Below are positions 13,566 through 39,073 of a stretch of 60,794 bases of DNA, in pieces (within the stretch, counting starts at the first letter, position 1; each line of letters opens with the position of its first letter). The stretch spans positions 1-60,794 of the forward strand of contig NIVC01004096.1 of NCBI GenBank assembly GCA_002269645.1, in the 5' to 3' direction. Source of the stretch: Macrostomum lignano. Taxonomy: Eukaryota. The notes beneath the pieces were generated by a model. The model worked only from the letters and a program-made list of their open reading frames with translations. It did not search any database and was not told the origin of the DNA. The position numbers and the translations under genes were made by a program.

Positions 13566-14691
13566 GACTCTCATAAAAGCCCAACCGAGGCCGAGGACAG
13601 CCGCGGAATCAGCGTTTTGTCAACTGCCTGATGACTGACGCTGGCGTCCCGAATTAGGTGGGCCTGAGAGTGTACATGCGAACAAACTAAATAGTTGGTC
13701 TACATTGAGTGCAAGCGAACGTAAAAATGCAAACGCACAGTCGTAACACTGACTGTCTATATAGTCCGATACTTTATCGAGCAGCCAACTTTTAGTTATG
13801 ACCATATCTACATACCCGGTCTTTCCTCTGGACCTATTAGATTCAAGGATTCCTTAAATAGAGCTGAAAAAGTCTCCGGCCATACAGACAGTCCAAGACT
13901 CCTTCTACTGCATACAGTCGGCAAAAGTAAAGCAATTTTGCCTGTCTAGCTCAGGGAAACACATCGAGCACAGATTTGATTTATCATGCCCCCTTCAAGG
14001 TAATAAAATCAGCCTCCAAGTTGGGCATTACTGACAATCGGACCACTTCTCACAGAGTTTCGTTTGCTTGGGTAAAATCAGCCCCTACCGACTATATTCT
14101 TTTTTAAGGCAAAAAAAATTGCAAAAAAATCGAAAAAAAATATCAGAGTCTCTCATAGCACCATCAAACAAAATTGCTCATTCAATTTATCAACTATTTT
14201 CAGTCCATTTCGATAATTATTTATCATATTTTTCTCCATAGTGGCTGCTTATGGTATTTATTGGAATTTTTTGGTAGATTGGCAATTAAAATTAGCGAAG
14301 CTCAGGAGGACAAAAGATGGCGGCAGTTTTTCGTGCCAAACGCTTTCTGAAATCAATTAAATTTTGAAATCAACGAGCCTTTCAAATAATGAAAAGGCCC
14401 GCCTCAGTTACGCGTAAATTGCGCTTGTTAAAAATGCGCCAGGCGCAACAATTGGAGCTTCCGTAGGGCGTGGCTTGGCCGGCTATTTCTGTCTGTCTCT
14501 CAGGTTAATTGAGCGGGACTAATCTTTTCGGTTAAAATTTATACCTTTTTTGCGATCCAGTTCCCCAAAATTGCAATCCATTTTGCGCGCGGAACTTTCT
14601 GCCTATCCAATATCCCATTATGACCCTGCTTGAGCCATAGACTAATCTCCGAAAACTGCCTCCAAAGTTTGCCCAAGAAGAATTTTCATTT

Positions 14692-14753
14692 AGTGCTTCC
14701 AGCAACAAAGGCAATTAAAACACGAACTTGGCACAGAAACGAAGCAGGCCTCC
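14692..14753 (-). repeat. Terminal repeat B2 (62 bp, identical to B1 at 14986-15047)
   Basis: AGTGCTTCCAGCAAC...GCAGGCCTCC present twice in direct orientation. Confidence 0.95.
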
Positions 14754-14825
14754 GTCAATAAAAAAGTGTTTCGAACTTCAATCTACGAGTATATTTGGCT
14801 TAAAGCAAACTTAACACGAAAAAGA

Positions 14826-15047
14826 AAAAAAATTCACTGCGAGAAGGCAAAGTGAGCCGCCAGTAGAGCGCGACGGGGGTTTAAAAACACCCCTGCCACC
14901 CAAGGGGGGGCAGGCGGCGATGTACAATCAACGCGCTGGGCACTAAAGCCGGTTTGTGCACTTTCGCCGCACAAACCAGTCCATTAGTGCTTCCAGCAAC
15001 AAAGGCAATTAAAACACGAACTTGGCACAGAAACGAAGCAGGCCTCC
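14826..15047 (-). repeat. Internal repeat junction A2 (14826-14985) + B1 (14986-15047)
   Basis: A2 matches A1 apart from homopolymer lengths; B1 matches B2. Confidence 0.95.
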
Positions 15048-15121: not shown

Positions 15122-16168
15122 TCAAAAATGAGCACTAAGGGCGGAAGAAAAATGCAGAGAGGCCGCAGCAGTGGCAACACCCGAGCGGGGCAAGTAGCGC
15201 TCCACCGCCGAACTCTTCCAGTCGCCGATCCGCTGGATCTCCGCCACCGGCAGGCCCATGCGAGCTGCCCAGGTGGCTCCACCTCGACGCAGGCTGTGAG
15301 CCGAGTAGAGCTTGCCGCCACACCCAGCCCTCTGCAGCTTAGAGTCAAGAAACCGGTCCAAGTCCCGAGCAGCTAGATGGCGCCGCTGTCCATTGCGATC
15401 GATGAAGGACCAGAGTGGCGCCTCGGCCATCGCCAGCTTGTTGACACACAGATGTCGGCGAATCGCCACTACCGGGCAGAGCGCGGGGCAGGCGGGGAAC
15501 TTCGGAAGCAGGACGTGGTGGACTCGATCACGGAACTGAATAGTCTTGCCAAAGTCCACGCTTAAGAGGAGGCCGCAACGGTGAGGTGTCAGATTCTGCA
15601 CCTTCATCCCACTACCCAACTGAGGCGACGATAGAAGGAGTGATGATTTTCGCAGCATTCCCCACCAGGCAGTGATGGTGACCGCCCAGCAGGCCAGTTG
15701 CCGATTGTCGCCCTTGTCAACCAGAGACCAAAGCTTTTGCAGCACCGACGGAGACATTGGTAGCTTCTGGTTGACCTGAAGCCCCAGCGCTCGCTTGCAG
15801 CCCCGCAGCAGATGCTGGGTGAGGGTATGCTTTGTCAGGTCCTGAGCGCCGTTCAGCCGAAACCACAGTGAAAGCGAGCTGACGTGACCGCGAATGCTAC
15901 TGTAGGCTCGCAGGCGCGTGCCCGTGAGGCCAGCCAGGTAGTTTAGCAGCGTGGACACAGTACACCCGGCGGGGTCGAGTCCCTTGGCTGAGCAGTACGC
16001 GCGCCAGGACCGCACGTGTGAGCTGATGGCGCTTTTCGAGCGGGCCGCGTAGGAGGAACCGAGTAGTTCACGGGCTCGGTGGCTGAGGTGGTCTGGCGCA
16101 GTCTGGCGACCTGAAAACGGAGAAAAGCGGATGTGGCAGCAGAAAGCGTGTGCCGGGAAAGCGAGCAA
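15122..16168 (-). CDS. Tyrosine recombinase (YR) ORF of the retrotransposon; probable coding start at splice acceptor 16110
   Basis: GMLRKSSLL (R), FGKT (K), AHSLRRGGAT (HxxR), GDWKS (W), ERYL (Y); N-terminal helical region ARELLGSSYA...WRAYC; overlaps the RH frame; track start is TTG. Confidence 0.93.
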   Translation of the reverse strand: MLAFPAHAFCCHIRFSPFSGRQTAPDHLSHRARELLGSSYAARSKSAISSHVRSWRAYCSAKGLDPAGCTVSTLLNYLAGLTGTRLRAYSSIRGHVSSLSLWFRLNGAQDLTKHTLTQHLLRGCKRALGLQVNQKLPMSPSVLQKLWSLVDKGDNRQLACWAVTITAWWGMLRKSSLLLSSPQLGSGMKVQNLTPHRCGLLLSVDFGKTIQFRDRVHHVLLPKFPACPALCPVVAIRRHLCVNKLAMAEAPLWSFIDRNGQRRHLAARDLDRFLDSKLQRAGCGGKLYSAHSLRRGGATWAARMGLPVAEIQRIGDWKSSAVERYLPRSGVATAAASLHFSSALSAHF

Positions 16169-17761
16169 TTGGTGAGACGCATCAATGAGCCATAAAAGCG
16201 CAGCAAAAAATTCAACAACTGACTGCCCTCGTGCAGCCGAGACGCGGCGTCAGCAAAAATTTGAAACGGCCCTGGCACATGGTAAGCACGCAGCTGAATG
16301 TTCTGACGAATGCAAAGCAGCGCCACCGTCTGCAACAGCCTCAACACCAGAGGGCACTTGGAGACCCCATTGTTGATAATACAGCACGCTGCCATATTAT
16401 CGCAGTAGATGCACAGCCGACAGTTGTGCAGGCGGTCCCGCCACGACAGCAACGCCATCAGAGGTATCGCAGCCTCCTTGTAATTGATAGGCAGATCCCG
16501 AAAACAGCATCCGCGTCGAGATCCCAATTAACGTAGCGCCAGTCACTCACGCCCCCGGCAACCGCAGCACGGCAGCGCCGCCCACCAGGCAGGCGTCCGA
16601 CTCGATCGCGGCATCGAAGTCGCCATTGAACCAGAGAGTCTTCCACCTTTGAGCTAGCAGAGCACACTTCCACCAGCGCAGCTGACTACGCAGGGCCGCA
16701 TCCACCTCATCTTGCTGACCGACGGCCAAATTGTTAGAGCGCGAAATCAGGTCCTGAAGAAAGGGGCGACCGCATTCGATCACCTGCGAAGCCCACACCA
16801 GCCTGCCGATGATCTGCTGTAAACTTTGCTTGCTGATGCGATCCTTGGCAGCAGCATCGTCCAGTTGCTCTAAAAGTTTCTCCACTTTCTCGTCTGAAAG
16901 CCGCTTCAGGCCCTTGACGGTGTCGAGCTCCACACCGAGAAACGTCATCCTTTGCGAAGGCCGCTGACACTTCGTCCAATTCACGGTGAAGCCCAGTCTG
17001 GTCATCAGCGACGTCAACACATTAAAGAAGGCCTCGCACTCGTTTTGCAAACCGCAAAAGGCAAAATCGTCCAGATAGGCCTCAGTATTGACGAAGCCGC
17101 GGTGCACCATCATCAACTTGACCGCCTCGCTGAGATGATAGAAAGCCGTGACGGAAGCAGCAGCACCAAATGGCAGGCGCGTGTCCACCATGTAGGTGTC
17201 GCAAGCATCGCTACCTAGCCGAAACTTCAAACCGGTAAACTTTTGGTCGTCAGGATGGATCCCACATGAACGATAGGCTTCGCTTAGATCGACCTTGCAC
17301 ATAAAGTAATTCTTCTTAAGCCTCTTAGCAAAGTTCTGGACACAGGTGAAACGCAGTCTCTGCTCGCTCTCGTAAGCGGAGTTGACAGACTTCCCTTGCG
17401 GCCGGCTGCAGTCATGGATTAAGCGAACGCCACCGTTGGACTTCGGCAGCGCACCAAGGGCGCTGACTATGCGAGGTTTGTCACCAGCAGCACAGAGACG
17501 ATAACGACCGAGACGAAGCTCATTAGCAATCTGACGCGCAACTCTGTCATGGTGCTTAAAAACCGATGAGTAGTTTGCCACTTCAACCAGCTCGTTGCCA
17601 TGCATCTGACGATTGGTGATGCGAAAGCCACTAGCAACGCCATCAAGGATAAAAGCCATCCGACCGGGCGGGAGATCCAGCTTGGACAACTCCGCCTGCC
17701 ACTGGGCCAGATTGAGATCAGAGGATAAAACAGGAGGAATAAAATTCGCGCTATGATCGAG
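15943..17761 (-). CDS. Reverse transcriptase + RNase H, interrupted by two 1-nt homopolymer shortfalls at 16552-16556 and 16501-16504
   Basis: RLIHDCS, KVDLSEAY, RLPFG, YLDD, TFLGVELDT, ESDAC, PINYKE, YCDN, HVPG...ADAASR. Confidence 0.93.
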
Positions 17762-18823
17762 TCAGTGTTGCGGTTTCTCCTCACCGCTCGATTCGTCGCG
17801 GTGGAAGGCTGCCTCAGAGTGCGCCAGGCCGCATCTTCGGCAGCGATGCAGGAACCGACAGCTCTTGCGTTCGCACCCGCGTATCCTGTTGTAGTCGAAG
17901 CAAACCAGTTGATTGCGCTTCTGGGCACCACCCCCCGATTGCTGCTTCTGGGGAGCCATGAGGTACGCCGCAACCAGACTCAGGTCCGAGCTGTGCGACT
18001 CCCACTTGCCATCAGACGTTTGGCTGAGCCGGCACTCGTCATCAAATCTCATCACACGGCTCTTGTCGAAGCCCAGGTCCAACAACTCGCCAATGCGTGC
18101 GGTGTACCTGAGATAGTCTCTGAGCTCTGCCACATCCAATCGACCATGCTGATCCAGTCTGACTAGACGCCCGTCAGTCAGCATCTGAAGCATCGCCTGC
18201 GCATTGCCCGTCACCCAATCGCCTAACGACAGCGCCTCGACCGCCACTTCTTTAGACTTACTCTGGCCTAGAAGACACTGCTTGCGCTTGCTGACGAAGT
18301 CAACGATTCGGTAGACGCTACTGGTACTTCTCCCTGAGGCTCCCATGTTCTCATGCTGCTGCCCAACTTCATGCTGCACACATCCAGTTAGGCAATTTAG
18401 CAACTCACCCGGTACATCACGTGCCTCAGAACGGCCGACCCGTAGCTGCGCGAACTCGGATTCCAGCTGCGCTTCTTCTTTGCGCAGCTTCAGCAGACGG
18501 ATTCGCTTCTCCGCCTCCAGCAGCTGTTCGTCCAGGCCGCCAGCCGCGCCAGACCCACCGTTCTCGACCTGTCGCCGATTTGGGGGGCTGCCCCCGCTGC
18601 TCGCTACCGCCGAGTTCTGCCCTGTAGCTCGCAGAATGGCCTGAACGTTCGTCAGCTCGTCACTCTCGACAGAGGTCTCCACGTCTTGAATATGGGCGCG
18701 AAGCCTTTGGACTAGTTTTGCTTTGTTGCCAGAGGTTGGCAAACCAAGCTCCTTTAGTTTCCCTCGCAGTGCTGGCACAGTTGTGGGGACGGAATCGGCT
18801 GACTGGCTACGGGTGCGGTTCAT
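17762..18823 (-). CDS. Gag-like ORF1 (353 aa): N-terminal SAP domain, coiled coil, C-terminal CCCH/CxxC zinc finger
   Basis: TVPALRGKLKELGLPTSGNKAKLVQRL fits the SAP consensus; CFDYNRIRGCERKSCRFLHRCRRCGLAH resembles Ngaro-type Gag fingers. Confidence 0.85.
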   Translation of the reverse strand: MNRTRSQSADSVPTTVPALRGKLKELGLPTSGNKAKLVQRLRAHIQDVETSVESDELTNVQAILRATGQNSAVASSGGSPPNRRQVENGGSGAAGGLDEQLLEAEKRIRLLKLRKEEAQLESEFAQLRVGRSEARDVPGELLNCLTGCVQHEVGQQHENMGASGRSTSSVYRIVDFVSKRKQCLLGQSKSKEVAVEALSLGDWVTGNAQAMLQMLTDGRLVRLDQHGRLDVAELRDYLRYTARIGELLDLGFDKSRVMRFDDECRLSQTSDGKWESHSSDLSLVAAYLMAPQKQQSGGGAQKRNQLVCFDYNRIRGCERKSCRFLHRCRRCGLAHSEAAFHRDESSGEEKPQH

Positions 18824-18852: not shown

Positions 18853-19014
18853 AAAAAAATTCACTGCGAGAAGGCAAAGTGAGCCGCCAGTAGAGCGCGA
18901 CGGGGGTTTAAAAACACCCCTGCCACCCAAGGGGGGGGGCAGGCGGCGATGTACAATCAACGCGCTGGGCACTAAAGCCGGTTTGTGCACTTTCGCCGCA
19001 CAAACCAGTCCATT
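18853..19014 (-). repeat. Terminal repeat A1 (about 160 bp)
   Basis: Direct copy of 14826-14985. Confidence 0.95.
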
Positions 19015-20700: not shown

Positions 20701-21972
20701 TGAAGAATATTCAATTGACGCTACTAAGTAAAACCAGTAGAAGATAGTGAACATGACAATATTCATCGAATTAATAACAAGGGAGGGGCTGGCCAGCTTG
20801 CCACGAGGGAGAAAACTGAAACCGGAACGTTCGGACTCGGCTGAGGCTTGACAGAGAGGTGAGGATGAAGGAGCGGAGGCTGGAGGAGGGGGGAGGGCAT
20901 CGCCTCTGAGGCGATCTAGTTCTAACTTGATCTTCTCTCTCCTTCTCTCTCTTCCGTCATCCTCATCACGGCGCCTCCTCTCCGCGGTGCTCAGCAGCCT
21001 CTCTCTCGCAGGTCTTCCCTTCATCCCCGCAGTTCCCCTGCCCACGCAGGTTGCTCTCCTTCCGTCTGGGAAAGCTCCCGTGTGGCATGGCCGGGGCTAC
21101 TCAAAAGTCCGCAGCCCCTGGGGAGCAGTGCTCATTGAATGCGAGGGAGAGATTTCAGATGAGGCGGCGGGGGAAGTCGGACGGCCATCGATCGATCTGC
21201 GCAAGCAGGGAAGAGAGTAGAGGAAGAACGGAGGCAGGAGTACAAACTGTTTCTGTTGCCCTCCCCTCGGGCGCGCTCGCTCCTCTTGCATCTATCTATC
21301 CGTATCTCTCGCTCCCTCGCCTCCCTAATCCAAATATCCCAGTCCCAGCTCCCAATGGGAGAAGGAATAGTAAGGAGGGAGAGAAAACGGGCAAGCGAGC
21401 GGCAAACGTTTGTACCACCTCGAGGCGTTTGCGGCGAGTGAGTGCGAGAGAAAGGCATCGAGACGGAATCCCGTCTACCTCCTGCTGTGGTAGCCCCAGC
21501 TCCAGCCCCCCCCCCACCCAAATAGGAGGCAACGAAGACTCTTTTTGGTAAAGGGTAAGAAACATGAAGGATGCTGAACGGAGAGGAAGAAATGAGGCTT
21601 AGAGCGAGAAAGAGAGGGATGCGGTACGGATTGAGGTCGGGCGAAGTTGCGTGCGCAGGTCGCGGGGGGAAACTATTTCGCGTCCGGCCCCGGTTCTCAT
21701 CGGATCGCATCTCTGCGGCTGGCCCAGCCCTGTTCTCCGCCACTGCACTCCTCGCCCATTCCCCCCTCCCTCGGAGGCTGACCCCTCCTCTTCCTCCGCT
21801 GCCGCCGCCTAGCCTCAAAGCACTGACGCCGCACAGGCCCTCTATAAAGAGTTCAGAAAACAGCACACTTAGACGCTGATAGAGGTGAAAAGTGTCTTTC
21901 AAAGGACGCAAATAATACGCCAAAGAAACATTTTGAGCAGGTAATTTCAGGTGCCTACAAAGCAGCAAAACA

Positions 21973-22645
21973 ATGGCCGGTTTCATCGCCAAACAGCTTG
22001 TTGGCAAGCAGATGGATAGCGTCAAAAAGATGGGCGGCGAGGAAGCCAATCCGGAGGACACCGAGAAGCAGGCCGAGGAGGCGGCCGCCATCGCCGAGGC
22101 TCTGGCTGAAGAGAAACGAAAACGCGACGAGAAGCATCAGAAAATGGAGGCGGAGCGCGAGGAACTGCGGCAGGGAATTCGCGACAAGGTGAGCGGAACA
22201 TCGCGTACCTGTTCAGGTTAATGAGAAATCGGTTAAGGAGTCTGAATCGAAGTACCGGGGTCATATTAGACTGGGAATCTTCATTACGAGCGTAACGCCA
22301 TCACCCCACTGAAGTTTCTGGAGGCTCTGGTAGTAATTAAGCGTGGTAACCCCTTAACCTAGCAAAGTTCGAGCTATTGCGAATAAACGAACGAATGCCT
22401 CATCGTGACTTCAGTACAACATCCAGAAGAAGGAGGAGGAGTTCAACTTCGGCGAAATGGACGACGGCAAAGGGGTCGGCAGGAAACGCAAAACCCCGGA
22501 AGAGCTCGCCGCCGAGCGCGACCTCGAAGAGAAGGAGGATTTTGCCTCCTTCCTGCCCGAGGGCGTCCGGGACACTGTGCGCAACGTCACCGCCGTGCCC
22601 CAGAAGATGATCTCCGACGCGCAGGAGAAGTGCGTCATTCAGTAG
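21973..22645 (+). CDS. cpx: Complexin (synaphin), 148 aa; exons 21973-22188, 22415-22645; C-terminal CAAX (CVIQ)
   Basis: MAGFIAKQLVGKQM N-terminus, EAEREELRQGIRDK|YNIQKK SNARE-binding helix, phase-0 GT-AG intron. Confidence 0.96.
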
Positions 22646-31818: not shown

Positions 31819-34800
31819 CTACCAGACACTACCTAAAGTAGTACGCGTAGTATTGGTGACTGAAGCGGCACCAGGCGCTGGAGAGTTCCCCTTGGCCGCA
31901 GCGCCAGCAACAGTCGCAGCGGCGGAGGACGGCGCCGAGATCAGCAGGCGCTCGTCGCGCGAGATTTCCGCAAAACTCTCCACCCTGCTGCCGTCGTCGG
32001 CGCGATAAAAACTGACCGCTGGCGAGCGCAGTCGCAGCCGCTGGGTGGCCGCCTTCAGCAGCGCCTCCAGCGAGTCGCCCCAGACGGTCACGGCGCCGGT
32101 GTCGCCGCGCCTGGCGCTCACAAGGACACGCTTCGTGTCGAATGTTGGCGGCGGCGGCGGAGGCTGCGCAGAATGGTGCGATGTCGGGCTGAAATTTGGC
32201 AGGTAAACTGGGGATGTACAGCGGCCTTGACTTTGGCTCTCATCAGCTCTCAGTCGGACGACTATTTGTCCTACAATATAAGACGTCAGAGCAGTATCAA
32301 CTCAATATACCCATTGCTCAGATGGGCAAGTGTTCCAGGGCTATTGCTCCAATCACGTGGATAGAAGTGCCTATCTGAGTCTGTGCATGCGTACATATAG
32401 CAGTGCCCAAAGCCTACAGGGACCAACTGAGATTACATTAAAAGGCTAGCCTGTAAAGTGGTAACTTTACAGCGAACAAGTTCTGTAACTCACCGCTTAG
32501 ACGAAGGAGGCGGCTGGAAGGGCTCGCCGGAAGACACGCAGCACAGCAGCTCCGAAGAGGACAGATCCGTCAGCGGGTCGTGCAGCTCGCGGCCCTCAGA
32601 ATCGTAGAGAATCCGACCGGGACGGCGGAGACCCAACCTGGCGGTGGCATTCTCAAGCGCCTGCGGCACCGACTCGGCCCAGATGGTCACCGCCGATGAC
32701 GTTGGATTTTCACCATTCGGGTAGACACGAAGGCGCGCGAGTCGCGGCTCTGGGTTGACGTCACCGACGGTGGCGCTGGCGACTGCTGCGGCCGCGGCCG
32801 CTGCGTCATCGCCCGACCGTCTGGGCGGCGCCTTCTTTGGGTGCACGAAATCTTCACCGATGGAAGCCCAGACCTCGACGATGGCGTCTTCATCCTCAAC
32901 AGAGGCCTCATCCTTCTTGCTGCCCGGCTGCTCTTTGTCTTTGTTTTTTCCGTCTTCTTCTTCATCGTCGTCGTCGTCGTCGACATCGACGTCAATCGAG
33001 ACGGTGATGCTGACCTCCACGTGCATCGAGGCGTGAGTTCTCTCGCCCTTTGGCTTCCTGGCAGACTTCCTGTACCAGGCATAGTCAGCAGCCATCTTGG
33101 TTGAGTTGATGAACTCTTCGTGCTCCTCGCGGATCAGACTGTCGAGCGGCACGTAGCAGGTGGCCAGCACAGACTCCTCCTCCGGCGTCAGCTCGATCAG
33201 GTCCAGTTTCAGCAGGCGAAACTTCTCGCCGAAGTAGCGGCGCAGAATCTGGAGCTCGGATTTGACCAGGATCTCGCGCTTCTCTCCCTCGAACGTCTCC
33301 TCGTTAGAAAATGGATCGGTGCAGAGGGTCTGGCCGAATATGCTGTACCTAACCGCTAACTGTCTGGCTTCATCAGTTTGCTCAGACTCGGGCAGAATCT
33401 CATCCAAGAAGCTCATTGAGTACAGGCTGATGCCCAGGTTGTAAGCCGAGGGAGCCGCGAATTTTGAGCCGATTATGAAATATTTGGACGTCAACCTCGG
33501 CTCGAGGTCGTCCTCCTTGGCTTGTTGAGTCTGATTCTCGTCATCGCTTTGAGAATCGTCCTCGTCATTGCTGGCTTCAGTCTTGGGAGCTGCGCCACGC
33601 TGACGCGCCACCTCCCGCTGACGTCTGCGCACCAGCTTAGCATTGGCGCTTCGCCAGCGACGGAGTTCAGCAATCTCAAGCACCTCCGTGCCGTCTTCAA
33701 GGAACAGCCGCAGCACTGGCTCTTCCGTGTTCAGCTTGAGTGTGCACTGGTCCATCAGGCCGGCAATGCTTGAACCTGTGGCAAGAACTGGCGGCCGCTG
33801 GCGCCCCTCGCCGTTGCGGTAGGCCAGCACTCGAATAGGGCGGGGAGTTCGCGCCTCGGACAGTCGCTCGTTGATCGCCTTCAGTGAAAGGTTTTGCCGT
33901 CTCTCTTCCAGCTCGCTTTCCCATCGCCTCAGAGTTGCTACATCTTCACCCTCTGTGAGATCGAGCTTTCCGCCGAGTAGGCGATAAGCGCCGGTCTCTT
34001 TCAGGCCGAGCGCGCCAGCCTGAGCGAAAGCGCACGCAAAATCGGCGCCGCGCGCTGCCGCACCGATCCTCTGCAGCTTGTAGCGGCCACGAAGCGACTT
34101 GGCGCAGCCGGCGCACACCTCACAGCACTTCATCCGCGCTTCGTCGCGTCGCGAATTCTGCAATCGGTGTTCTACAGGCAAGTACACAGTGTAGCCTGGC
34201 TGATCAATTGCGTAGTCCTTCGGCAGCACTACACTGCTTGTACAGCAGCCGCAGTGAATAGCAACAGTAACTGCAATGTCTAATGGGTTGGAGGCAAAGC
34301 ATCTGACTGTACTGCTGGCTTCATCGACTGCAAACAGTTGATGCGCGCGACCAAACTGATTTGGAACCTGCGGTTGCACAGTCAATACGGCGGCCTCGGT
34401 GTCCACAGGTTGGGAGGCGGACACTTTAGGCAGCTGCAACGTCAGCGCGCTGCCTGATTGGTATTTTAAAACGATGAAGCCGCTGGGGCTGAGCTGCCAA
34501 CGCTGATAGACATTGTCCGGTCGCCGGCGCTGCAGGGTAACTTCCAGGCCGCTTTTGACGCCAGTGTCGACCGCCGTCAGCACGAGGCCGCAGTCCTCCA
34601 ATGAATAGATGTAGCCGTCTTCGTAGCCGAACTGCTTCAGCGCATCGCCATCTCGACTGCCGAAGCGGCGACGCCTGGGAGCGCCATCATCAAACTCGGT
34701 GCTAACTATCCTTTCCCATGGCCAGCGGAGCTTGTTGAGCTTGCCGTCTTCGCTGTCACGAACTCCGTTACCCAATCTGCCGGCAGCAGCATAGTTTGAG

Positions 34801-37800
34801 TCGTCGACAGAAGCGACAGAAGCGTCCTTTACGACACAGATTCGAGCACTAGGGGTCAAGCTCTCGGTGCTTAGAGCCAAATTTTGAGTGCTTTTTCTTA
34901 GGGCAACAAAGCACCTTATCTTGTCGACATCATCGGATAGCTTAGAAAGTAGCGATCGTGCTTCCAGCTGCGACTTTGTAAACTTCGGATCAATCCAATC
35001 CTCGCCGGTCGAGATGTACACTACTTGATCGCTCTCCAGCTGCTTCAGGGACTTGTGCTCAAACCCGTTCCGGTCGAAAAGTCTTTTGGCCTCAGCGTTC
35101 AGTCCGAGCTTCGTAGTGCAGGACTCCAGAAAGATTTGAAATTGCACTTCACTCACTTTCTGCTCGGTTTCGCCAGGCTGAAATTCGTCAGCCGTCACCG
35201 TTGAGGCCGCGTCGCTGAGTAAAGACGAATGTCGGATTCGTCTTGTCTTTGTTGTCTGACGCTTCAGCAGCTGGCGATCCTTTTTCATATTTGTGAGATC
35301 GGGTGCAGTTATGAAAACCCCGACTTCCTCCTTCCGCTCGCCGTTCTTCAGGCAAAACAATCGTTTCCGCTGCTCCGCTTCAGGCTTGTATTTTAATGGC
35401 GGCGCGAATGTCAGAATTTGACCTTCGATTGGCCAGTCGTAATCTTCGATCCAGTGGCCCCGCTGATCGGTAGGCCACACGATGGCCAACTTGCTCCAGG
35501 CTGGGTCCCTGTACCTCGCCGCCTTTCTCAGCTGGCTCAGGTTGCCAAGCTTTTGCAGTCGAATACCGAATCGCTGGTACTTGGCTAGGCGAGATTCCAG
35601 GTGCTCACAGACTGCCAGAAGATTTCGATGTCCAGAATCGCGATCGAGCTCATTCTTCGGACACGAGCTCAACTCGTCAATCGATCCACCCAGATAGGTT
35701 AGCGCCAGCTCGGGAAACTGTTTGGAATAGACGAGCCCGTCTGTGTGGAAAATCCACCGCTGCGACGCGCGCACCTGAAACTCGTCGCGTTCGAACGGAC
35801 AGAACTGCACTAAGCTGCCTCGAATTCGAACTCCATTTAGGTCAGTTTCAATCTCGTAGTCAGTGACGGCAAGAGCAAGGCCGGGAAATCCTTTAACAGA
35901 TATTTGACCTGACTTGTGAATGACCCACGACTGCGCAATACCTGCCTTTGGCCAGACTGGCAGCACAGGGCGAGTCTGTTGATGGTCATCGCTCTTGGCT
36001 ATCGCCGACTCGTGAGGCACTTTCATGACGCCGACAACGGGCTCGACAAAGAGACACAGTTTCCGATTTCGGCTATGCTGCAGGAAGCAGCTCTCTATCG
36101 GCACTGAACCTTCGGGAGGCTTGATGGGTTCTTTTGTTGCACCAGGTGCAGCCGCAGCAATCTCTTCGCCATCTTCATCTTCAAAGTCGCAGACATATTC
36201 TTCCTCCGCTTCTTCTTCTTCATCTTCTTCAAGCGTCAGTTGTTCGACATCGTCTGGAAGCTGCCATTGAGCATCCCAGGCCGAGGGTCGTTCCAGAGAG
36301 TCGTCAATGTGCGGAATGTCCGATCGGACCGCAAAGCGGGCGGCCCCCTTTTTCCACGCCGTTATTCTGCTGACCTCGGCCTGCAGGCAGTAAGTGAACG
36401 GGTCAATCCAGTTTTCACCGTGCGAGATCCAAATCTCATCATCGTATTGCAGCGTGAGAGCGTCGGTTACCTCCTGACCGGACTTAGTAAAGATGCGCTG
36501 AACGAGGGTACCTTTGGACTTGCTGCTCTGGCCAGCCAACTGTGGATTAGCTGACAAGCTGTCCAGGAAACGCTGGAAGACTATTCGCGTCCCGTCCCTG
36601 TCTTTACCAAGGCCTCTGGATGCCTCGCGCATGTTGAAATACACAGTGACTGGATCGGAGTCTCGTCCGTTGTTGTGGACTTTTAGTCGGATGCCACGTC
36701 TATCGGAGACGAGCCTGTGGTTCTCAGGCAACGCAGATATGTGTTTCATTGTGAACTGACTGCCTTCCTCAAGCTCAGATCTCGCTTTGGGCTCGACGGC
36801 TCTTACTTTGGCTTTGAACTCAGTCAGGAAAGCAACATATTCATCATGATTCTCAGTTTCCTTGGCGATCTTCTGCTCTAACTCCTTTTTTGATAATGAC
36901 AGAATTCGCTTGTCTGTCAGTTGGGGATCTCCGGCGAGACTTGATCTGTCGTCACAATAGTAGGCAGCATTCAACTGTGCCAAGTATTTGTTGCACTGCG
37001 ACTTTAGCCTTGCAACAAATTCGATCGAATCTCTTAGGTACTCCTCTACTCCCATTGGACTGATATTTTCTCCCTTACTGAGCCACACGGGGCCTAAAAG
37101 TGGTGCACTGGATGAGTTAAAGAAATGATGAAGCATTGGCACAGTGTGCAAGTTGGTAACTTCTTGGCCGTCTAGGAGAAGTACACGACGGAACGGCTGG
37201 CCGGACTTAAGTTTGAAAGTGCAGCTCTGCAAGAAATCTTCCATGTTGGTCATATCAGCCATTACCTCCACGCCCTTAATGCCCTTACCGTTCGGAAAGG
37301 CTAGAATTCGTCTCTTTGCTGCTCGGTTTCCCTCCAATCTTGTAGAACCAATCAACGGCTTTGTTGTCTCCTTCTCGCGACCACTTGGAAGATTTAGACC
37401 AGTGAGAGTCCACTGCATATCGGCCTTTATACTGAGCTTCTTTTTAAACATCTTTAATGGATCCTTAAAAGGCTCTCCCATAGATGCGAATACATCGATT
37501 CCTCTAGGCAAAATGCTGTCTTTAGGCTCCTGAAGACAGAAACAGCTAGAAGATGGTAAATGCAGACGCTGTGTACACTCCTCAAGCAGCCTCTCAAAGT
37601 TTGGCGCAGAAACTCTGTGGCTTGTGGAAGTGTCTCCATTCTTGAATGCATTAACGACGTAAACTGCTGGCTTCAGTAGATAACTATCTTGACCTGATAG
37701 ACGACTATGACGTCTTTTCGTGGAGTTTAAATCTTGGCTATTTTGTAGCGGAGTCAAGTCAAGTTCGTCTTTTTCTAAGCCTTTAGCCATAAAATGTCCG

Positions 37801-38120
37801 CTGGAACCACTGTTTCGCCTATTAGCAGGTATAGGAGCTTGTCTCAAACTTGCCTCCGATTCCTTTGTTGGAGTGTGCGGTGGTGCTCTTCCAATATCTG
37901 TTGACCGCGACCTTTCACTGACAGGTTTTGTTGAGCGCGTTCTGTGGCTTCTAATCGAGCTGCACGACCCTTGTTGAGTTTTGTACGAAGATAAAATATT
38001 TGAGTGACCGAGAGGAAGCTGGTATGGAGAGCGTTCCACTCTTTTTGACATGGAATGATCAGCACTCAGTTCATTAGCATATCGCTCAAGAATCAAATCT
38101 TCAATACTCTTTCCTTCCAT
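31819..38120 (-). CDS. DCDC1: DCDC1-like protein (several doublecortin-like domains, ricin-B lectin repeats, C2-like insert), about 1998 aa; exons 38120-32494 and 32188-31819
   Basis: Repeated DCX-like units (VNAFKNG...LLEECTQRLHL; LAYRNG...CTLKLN; RVYPNG...ATARLGL); QxW ricin motifs (QSW, QRW, QRWQL); AAG CG|GTGAGT donor and TTTCAG|C acceptor extend the ORF into a further DCX-like unit. First ATG is 38120. Confidence 0.8.
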
Positions 38121-39073
38121 TATAAAGCAATAGTAGTTATTTTGCCGAGAATTGCAGCTCAGCAACTATTTTTTACTAAACCGATCTTTCGAGTGCATTT
38201 GGAATGGAATTAAATAATAGCTGGCATGCGACTTCAAAATGCTGTAATGACACAAACGGAGAAAAAACTTGGGCTTAATGAAATTTTACCAGACAAAATA
38301 AAATAAAAGAAACTTTCATAATAAGTATTTTCGTCAGATATACAATTTTGTGTGATGCATTAAAAGACTTTGTTTGTATTCGTTTTCTTTTTACTTTTTT
38401 GAATTGTACAGGTCCGCACGCGGCTAGCTGCTAGCACTAGCACGAACTTAGCGTTAATCAGAGCTGTGATCAGAACTGTGATCGTGCTAAATCCAGTTTG
38501 TGAAATCGTAATCGTAGTTATGTAATATTTGAATTGCCGTAACAGAAAATATATTAAGTCCTAGCAATACAGCTGCAGATGCCTGTTTCTGTGTCTACGT
38601 CTACATTAAACCCGTATTGCAACTATACATACATTGATAAATATGCCAAACTTCCCGTTCCATCCCACCTATGCCATTTAGTCCTTTATCGGTTGACTGC
38701 AAATCTACAGGTAGTCTATCTAGTCGTTTCGATTCACTATACTCATTTCAAATGAGTACTTATCTATAATAATGACTAGATGGATTATTTGTATTTTTTG
38801 GTCAGTGTTCATCAATACTCATTCAATTCAACATTGGTATTGCTCTTTGTCAGTCTTGGACATACTTTGACTATAATCTATACTATAGGCTAAGGCTATA
38901 ACTATAAGCCTATCTGCTATCTGTTGAATTTGGTAGGATAATTCAATGAGCCTAACAATGCTAATTACTATACCTACTAGTACTAAAGTATCTTTGCTTT
39001 TGATTATCATATTTAATTAATGTACAAAAACCTTTAAAATATCTAAATTGAAGAATATATGTCAGTATGTGCC

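Follow-up and report, generated by a model that had tools for sequence, protein, structure and literature searches.

A retrotransposon on the minus strand of the window, by which we mean the whole 60,794-nucleotide stretch of DNA analysed, has gag and pol in one reading frame with a single UGA between them. This raises the question as to how its reverse transcriptase is made: by ribosomes reading through the stop, from a message from which the stop has been spliced out, from a separate start downstream, or not at all if the UGA is a mutation. The initial annotation favoured readthrough, with splicing as the alternative. Comparison with relatives supports readthrough to a Gag-RT/RH protein as the best explanation, and we put its probability at about 0.78. 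The element has the following parts.

18853–19014, minus strand: A1, split direct repeat at the 5′ end of the element (162 nt, 98.8% identical to A2)
17765–18823, minus strand: gag ORF of 353 codons, starting at ATG 18823, with an N-terminal SAP domain
15943–17761, minus strand: RT/RNase H (RT/RH) ORF of 606 codons, open once N is placed at two break positions
15122–16110, minus strand: tyrosine recombinase (YR) coding region, overlapping the end of RH in the -1 frame
14690–15047, minus strand: whole 3′ repeat block, B1-A2-spacer-B2
15047–14984, minus strand: B1, 3′ repeat (64 nt, 100% identical to B2)
14985–14826, minus strand: A2, 3′ repeat (98.8% identical to A1)
14753–14690, minus strand: B2, 3′ repeat (64 nt, 100% identical to B1)

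The element is a Ngaro-type tyrosine-recombinase retrotransposon of the order DIRS, because it combines the split direct repeats A1-ORFs-B1-A2-B2 with the same-strand order of a gag-like ORF, RT/RH and then YR, and has no methyltransferase match; this layout of split repeats and ORFs is that given for Ngaro in the available parts of PMC8547959 and PMC3266345. Ngaro elements as presented in the accessible portions of PMC8547959, PMC3783388 and PMC9210276 share with the window the repeat arrangement, the gene order, the lack of a recognised methyltransferase and the overlap between YR and the end of RH. The window differs in the 72-nt spacer that repeat analysis places between A2 and B2, and in its in-frame UGA, whereas the Ngaro descriptions covered give three, often overlapping ORFs and describe no gag-pol recoding signal.

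As regards the coding parts, the SAP domain of gag is recognised by Pfam (E 1.8e-11), CCCH and CxxC-H zinc-finger-like motifs lie at its C-terminus (17819–17902), and gag has four relatives at 43–52% identity. The RT frame contains RVT_1 (Pfam E 5.9e-12). RH gave no Pfam match in the window fragment, PF17917 being present in some homologues, and the C-terminal ORF of RH matched no Pfam family, methyltransferases included, at E 0.1; the whole RT/RH ORF ends after 606 codons. YR matches Phage_integrase at E 2.3e-05, under the curated cut-off, and its translation shows H-x-x-R, W and Y motifs. The break in RT/RH near 16550–16500 is likely an assembly error of the window, because all four sequencing runs compared there show two separate one-base insertions relative to the window. 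Among named proteins the best matches are gene models of Macrostomum lignano, at 73%, 52% and 50% identity, which makes this laboratory flatworm or a relative of it the likely host and the element accessible to assays. Repeat analysis found no further copy of the element in the window, and the element is young. Contigs reading B1-A-gag start were seen in run X8 (window 18932 to 14904), with a loose end at 19014 in run X1; they may represent a circular or tandem junction or, equally, assembly through the A repeat. Runs X1 and X8 also lack cover over the flanks, to which we attach no weight.

The gag-pol junction has the following features.

17761–17764, minus strand: in-frame gag stop TGA with C at +4 (CAC TGA CTC), candidate readthrough site
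17717–17761, minus strand: short linker after the stop, with predicted disorder in its first 10 residues (pLDDT 41 for residues 1–10)
17702–17704, minus strand: CAG in phase 0, proposed splice acceptor, weak and not conserved
17687–17716, minus strand: L-N-L-x-x-W-x-x-E-L, a conserved motif that precedes the first pol ATG, with a predicted helix at residues 18–25
17657–17659, minus strand: first in-frame pol ATG, 34 codons past the stop

The minus strand at 17770–17756 reads CAA CAC TGA CTC GAT, with TGA at 17764–17762, and gag and RT translate as one frame interrupted by this single stop, as the initial annotation had said. The UGA is real and not an assembly error, since contigs bridge it with unchanged letters in all eight runs compared. 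These are eight of 24 runs listed, from seven studies under one organism label; their RNA labels are guesses, X2 may be the source of the window itself, and the runs may be closely related stocks rather than independent evolutionary samples. The alignment of one diverged contig extends to 17768, its last 31 letters not being itemised. An in-frame stop followed by C has a chance of roughly 1 in 10 in a single element, and the support for readthrough comes from relatives.

The host uses UGA as an ordinary stop. That it is instead read there as a sense codon or as selenocysteine is an idea with next to no probability: a 1891-codon ORF of the window contains no in-frame TGA and itself ends in TGA, as does the YR ORF, and UAG takes the place of UGA in half (12/24) of the in-frame relatives described below.

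The relatives were found through an RT alignment built with 34 of at least 120 homologues listed, and comprise the best 80 of 153 metagenome loci together with eight genome-bin loci. Including the window, 89 sequences were examined, and 59 distinct ones (the window and 58 relatives) were kept after dereplication at 90% RT identity. The 30 that were dropped consist of 18 in which no zinc-finger gag end was found, most of them truncated contigs or damaged copies, five with a broken RT start, one fused element (L061), three near-duplicates and three with inconsistent junctions (L037, L039 and L057). Relatives with DNA are about 40–43% identical to the window in RT. The genome-bin loci (L081–L088) are eukaryotic retrotransposon contigs within bacterial bins, a placement that likely reflects host contamination. 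Among viral contigs, 55 pattern matches yielded no relatives. Thirteen longer homologue proteins were inspected as possible gag-pol fusions and none was accepted; most are gene models with predicted introns, and P0132, a single ORF, loses gag homology near its junction.

The 59 elements fall into three classes by the frame of pol relative to gag. The first, with gag and pol in frame and one stop between them, comprises the window and 24 relatives, of which 12 have UGA, 12 UAG and none UAA. The base that follows the stop is skewed in these relatives: C follows UGA in 9/12 and G follows UAG in 9/12 (for either, p 0.001 when compared with base frequencies in the linker). UGA-C or UAG-G is thus found in 18/24 in-frame relatives vs. 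5/34 with a shifted pol frame (Fisher p 6e-6, kinship ignored), and UAA in 0/24 vs. 10/34 (Fisher p 0.003, kinship ignored). At 60% dereplication the leaky contexts still separate the groups, with 13/16 in-frame vs. 2/23 shifted. In every one of the 25 in-frame elements the stop precedes the W motif by 30–108 nt, no second stop intervenes before W in 27/28 in-frame rows, and the other two frames are open in 18/50. A full RT/RH ORF is present in 16/25.

The second class, with 27 elements (e.g. L001, L005, L017 and L084), has pol overlapping gag in the -1 frame. Of these, 23 have an in-phase A-AAA-AAC in the final 75 nt of gag; it is found there in none of the 32 others and is absent from 26,391 nt of gag body. 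The gags of this class often end K-N-stop. The portion of PMC5009743 covered ranks A-AAA-AAC with the most shifty of the -1 heptamers and gives UCC-UUU-CGU as the +1 cassette of influenza. The third class (L006, L010, L021, L023, L024, L026 and L036; n = 7, one clade) overlaps in the +1 frame, and all seven members have an in-phase TTT-CGT that occurs in none of the other 52, as part of CGT-TTT-CGT (P-P-R-F-R) close to the end of gag. Among the 59 elements, neither A-AAA-AAC nor UUU-CGU occurs outside its own class. Judged by these motifs, the in-frame elements are not decayed frameshifters, because the motifs are absent from all of them. The initial annotation had expected copies with an in-frame gag and pol and a leaky stop, and had counted a different frame relation against readthrough. 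A leaky context is there in most in-frame relatives, but 34/58 relatives have a shifted pol frame; these are distant from the window, and they support recoding nevertheless, since both shifted classes carry a frameshift motif specific to them.

These data bear on a further rival, namely that the UGA is a nonsense mutation in a once-fused gag-pol and the family non-autonomous. One sequence of the 89, L061, is indeed a single gag-pol ORF, and since the runs may be closely related stocks, the constancy of the stop among them says little about selection. However, L061 has a lengthened A-run at its slippery site and looks like an altered -1 element. The stop keeps its place before W in every in-frame element, the RT/RH and YR of the window are otherwise open, and A1 and A2 are still 98.8% identical. 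A nonsense mutation is, in our view, highly unlikely.

How often the family has changed frame was estimated from a quick IQ-TREE run with SH-aLRT support only, in a tree that contains unnamed relatives. The best tree has nine changes among the three frame states, and its well-supported branches force at least five changes for -1, four for UGA and three for UAG. Five independent tree pairs point mostly in the expected direction, without reaching significance (median p of 0.25 and 0.125 in sign tests). The window shares a long branch with its four nearest proteins, which entered the comparison as protein sequences. One close gag ends K-N and one close pol frame has K-K-L upstream, which we read as protein traces of a -1 site, and another close gag ends Q-H as in the window. 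Frame use therefore likely varies even within the nearest subclade, because such traces stand beside a Q-H gag end.

The RNA downstream of the junction gives readthrough no additional support. The folding analysis covered simple stems, as distinct from pseudoknots, within about 200 nt. No stable fold was found in the 202 nt after the window stop (z +1.48; 188/200 shuffles fold as well). The in-frame class shows no structure excess (mean z -0.01; 3/25 below -2), nor is there a clear excess of downstream stems in the -1 class (mean z -0.31), and the +1 class folds better than controls (mean z -0.91, seven related elements). In the part of PMC3159437 available, a stem-loop raises readthrough of UGA-C cassettes up to 10-fold, from 0.2–2% without a stem, and UGA-CUA/CGG and UAG-G are given as the type II and type III readthrough contexts. 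The window has CTC after its UGA, and CTA is present in 2/13 UGA cases. Counting against readthrough are the absence of a 3′ structure in this analysis, a CTC that is off-consensus, the 6/24 in-frame relatives without a leaky +4 base, the distance of the relatives with DNA, the -1-like look of some of the nearest proteins, a pairs test that is not significant and the behaviour of the Tca2 junction described below.

Several known systems resemble this junction in part. Gammaretroviruses such as MuLV, with type III readthrough (available portions of PMC5009743 and PMC3159437), likewise separate an in-frame gag and pol by a single stop, and the MuLV context UAG-G occurs in 9/12 UAG relatives. The window differs in having UGA-C, no pseudoknot or stem found, and neither protease, DDE integrase nor env; it is not a retrovirus. 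With the alphavirus-type II signal (PMC3159437, in part) it shares UGA followed by C, but it has CTC in place of CUA/CGG and no detected extended 3′ stem-loop. Gag and pol are also split by UGA in Tca2 of Candida albicans, whose pol is made from full-length RNA; Tca2 differs in being an LTR element, and its junction, which contains a minor promoter, did not bring about readthrough when placed in a yeast reporter (PMC2194720, in the part available). The +1 site of influenza PA-X, UCC-UUU-CGU (PMC5009743, in part), recurs as in-phase UUU-CGU in 7/7 of the +1 relatives and not in the window; these relatives, which form one clade, have CGU as the codon before it. For elements of the order DIRS, we found neither a readthrough nor a frameshift signal between gag and pol described in the portions covered of PMC8547959, PMC7192593, PMC6681497, PMC3783388, PMC3266345, PMC9210276, PMC13003380, PMC8226300 and two bioRxiv texts, and the portion of PMC5009743 covered mentions neither DIRS nor Ngaro. 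An earlier mention is possible in Goodwin and Poulter 2004, Poulter and Butler 2015, Repbase or paper supplements, and ORF frame relations may be given in Repbase or in the supplements of PMC9210276 and PMC8547959.

The W motif bears on where the pol protein begins. W-x-x-x-L/I was found at the junction position in 59/59 elements (a W up to four residues away from the profile position being accepted). AlphaFold2, run with a 35-row alignment, predicts helices at residues 18–25 and 32–44 (pLDDT 82–97), the first 10 residues being of low confidence. The ATG at 17659 is, as originally annotated, 34 codons downstream of the stop and omits the preceding D-L-N-L-A-Q-W-Q-A-E-L. A separate Pol could in principle be made from this ATG or from a non-AUG codon, through reinitiation, an internal promoter or a trans-spliced short message, and trans-splicing occurs in flatworms. 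ATG 17659 has G at +4, and an ATG is found within 60 codons before W in 4/25 in-frame and 5/7 +1 elements; the minor junction promoter of Tca2 (PMC2194720, in part) is a precedent. A start at 17659 would, however, lose a motif that is kept in 59/59 elements and forms a confidently predicted helix, while no ATG precedes the motif in 21/25 in-frame elements. Moreover, 17 ATGs lie upstream of 17659 counted from A1, making leaky scanning unlikely, and a diverged contig of run X19 lacks this ATG, though that contig looks decayed. A separate start also leaves both the stop-context bias and the frameshift motifs unexplained, and we consider it unlikely.

The alternative raised by the initial annotation was that pol is reached by splicing to the phase-0 CAG at 17704–17702. 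The family likely uses splicing for YR, and two features of the window suggest how.

16111–16128, minus strand: phase-1 CAG acceptor with a strong pyrimidine tract, at the YR start
18402–18408, minus strand: predicted phase-1 donor in gag, G|GTGAGT

On an ad hoc splice-site scale the YR acceptor (16113–16111) scores 12.4, vs. 4.6 for the CAG at the junction. At the YR start the best acceptor is in phase 1 in 28/34 testable elements and scores at least 8 in 29/34, whereas in an equal 121-nt window at the gag-pol junction 7/25 in-frame elements reach 8, in mixed phases. Another phase-1 donor in the window gag starts at 18261; the four donor-like sites of this gag are all in phase 1 or 2 and none is in phase 0. 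Of the 59 elements, 44 have a phase-1 GTRAG donor in gag, 11 a phase-0 one and none a phase-2 one. YR is thus likely made separately, from a predicted gag-to-YR spliced message, because the phase-1 gag donors match the strong and conserved phase-1 acceptor at the YR start. The available part of PMC13003380 quotes Poulter and Butler 2015 to the effect that YR is probably made by frameshifting, whereas the conserved acceptor found here points to splicing. Inside the -1 overlap of RH and YR, at about 16215–16205, the RH frame contains T-TTT-TTG, which encodes an L-N-F-L shared by the nearest proteins and could be a slippery site providing another route to YR.

For the junction itself, a message spliced from gag to the CAG at 17704–17702 would remove the stop. 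The pyrimidine-rich stretch and the phase-0 CAG exist, as annotated, and two gene models of Macrostomum, both of them predictions, bridge the region from gag to RT. The acceptor is nevertheless weak and unconserved, junction acceptors are rare and of mixed phase, the window gag offers no phase-0 donor-like site to match, and splicing at 17701 would remove the L-N-L of the conserved motif. In the eight runs we saw no joint or branch at 17701; contigs cross it unbroken, but since contigs drop rare forms this is a weak point against splicing. One run does branch at the YR acceptor, where a contig of X4 joins foreign sequence, absent from the window, at exactly 16110. No gag-to-YR joint was seen in the four runs compared over the whole element. 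Taken together, we regard splicing at 17701 as quite improbable.

Readthrough of the UGA would work as follows. Most ribosomes would terminate at the UGA and release Gag, and a few, at a low rate, would insert an amino acid there and continue into a Gag-RT/RH protein of about 960 residues. The UGA would be decoded by a near-cognate tRNA, candidates being those for Trp, Cys or Arg. The low rate would set the high Gag:Pol ratio for particle assembly, with Gag-RT/RH packaged together with Gag. The window stop is likely a programmed readthrough site, backed by the family-wide match between frame and signal. A Gag-Pol fusion is likely the product throughout the family, because leaky stops are favoured, an ATG before the motif is mostly absent, and frameshift motifs occur at the same junction. 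The wider family would reach this fusion by three interchangeable routes: readthrough at UGA-C or UAG-G, -1 frameshifting at A-AAA-AAC and +1 frameshifting at UUU-CGU. We lean towards a general scheme for Ngaro-type elements in which these routes have been switched several times or more (nine changes in the best tree) and are combined with a conserved gag-to-YR splice.

How RT and recombinase are expressed in DIRS-order elements is not explained in the portions of the literature covered, and the match between frame and recoding signal provides a testable expression scheme for a widespread group of animal transposons. If the scheme holds, one family uses termination, three recodings and splicing to make three proteins, and an unrecognised stimulator may act at UGA-C sites that lack structure. 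The family would also form a natural series in which readthrough can be set against -1 and +1 frameshifting at a single homologous junction, and would provide a retroelement with a candidate PA-X-like +1 site. The junction carries a warning for annotation, in that gene predictors invent introns there and in-frame stops do not mark dead copies.

Finally, many tandem repeats are present elsewhere in the window. The 1891-codon ORF lies at 32493–38165 on the minus strand, and a short exon-like ORF at 21937–22221 on the plus strand presumably resembles the start of a complexin.
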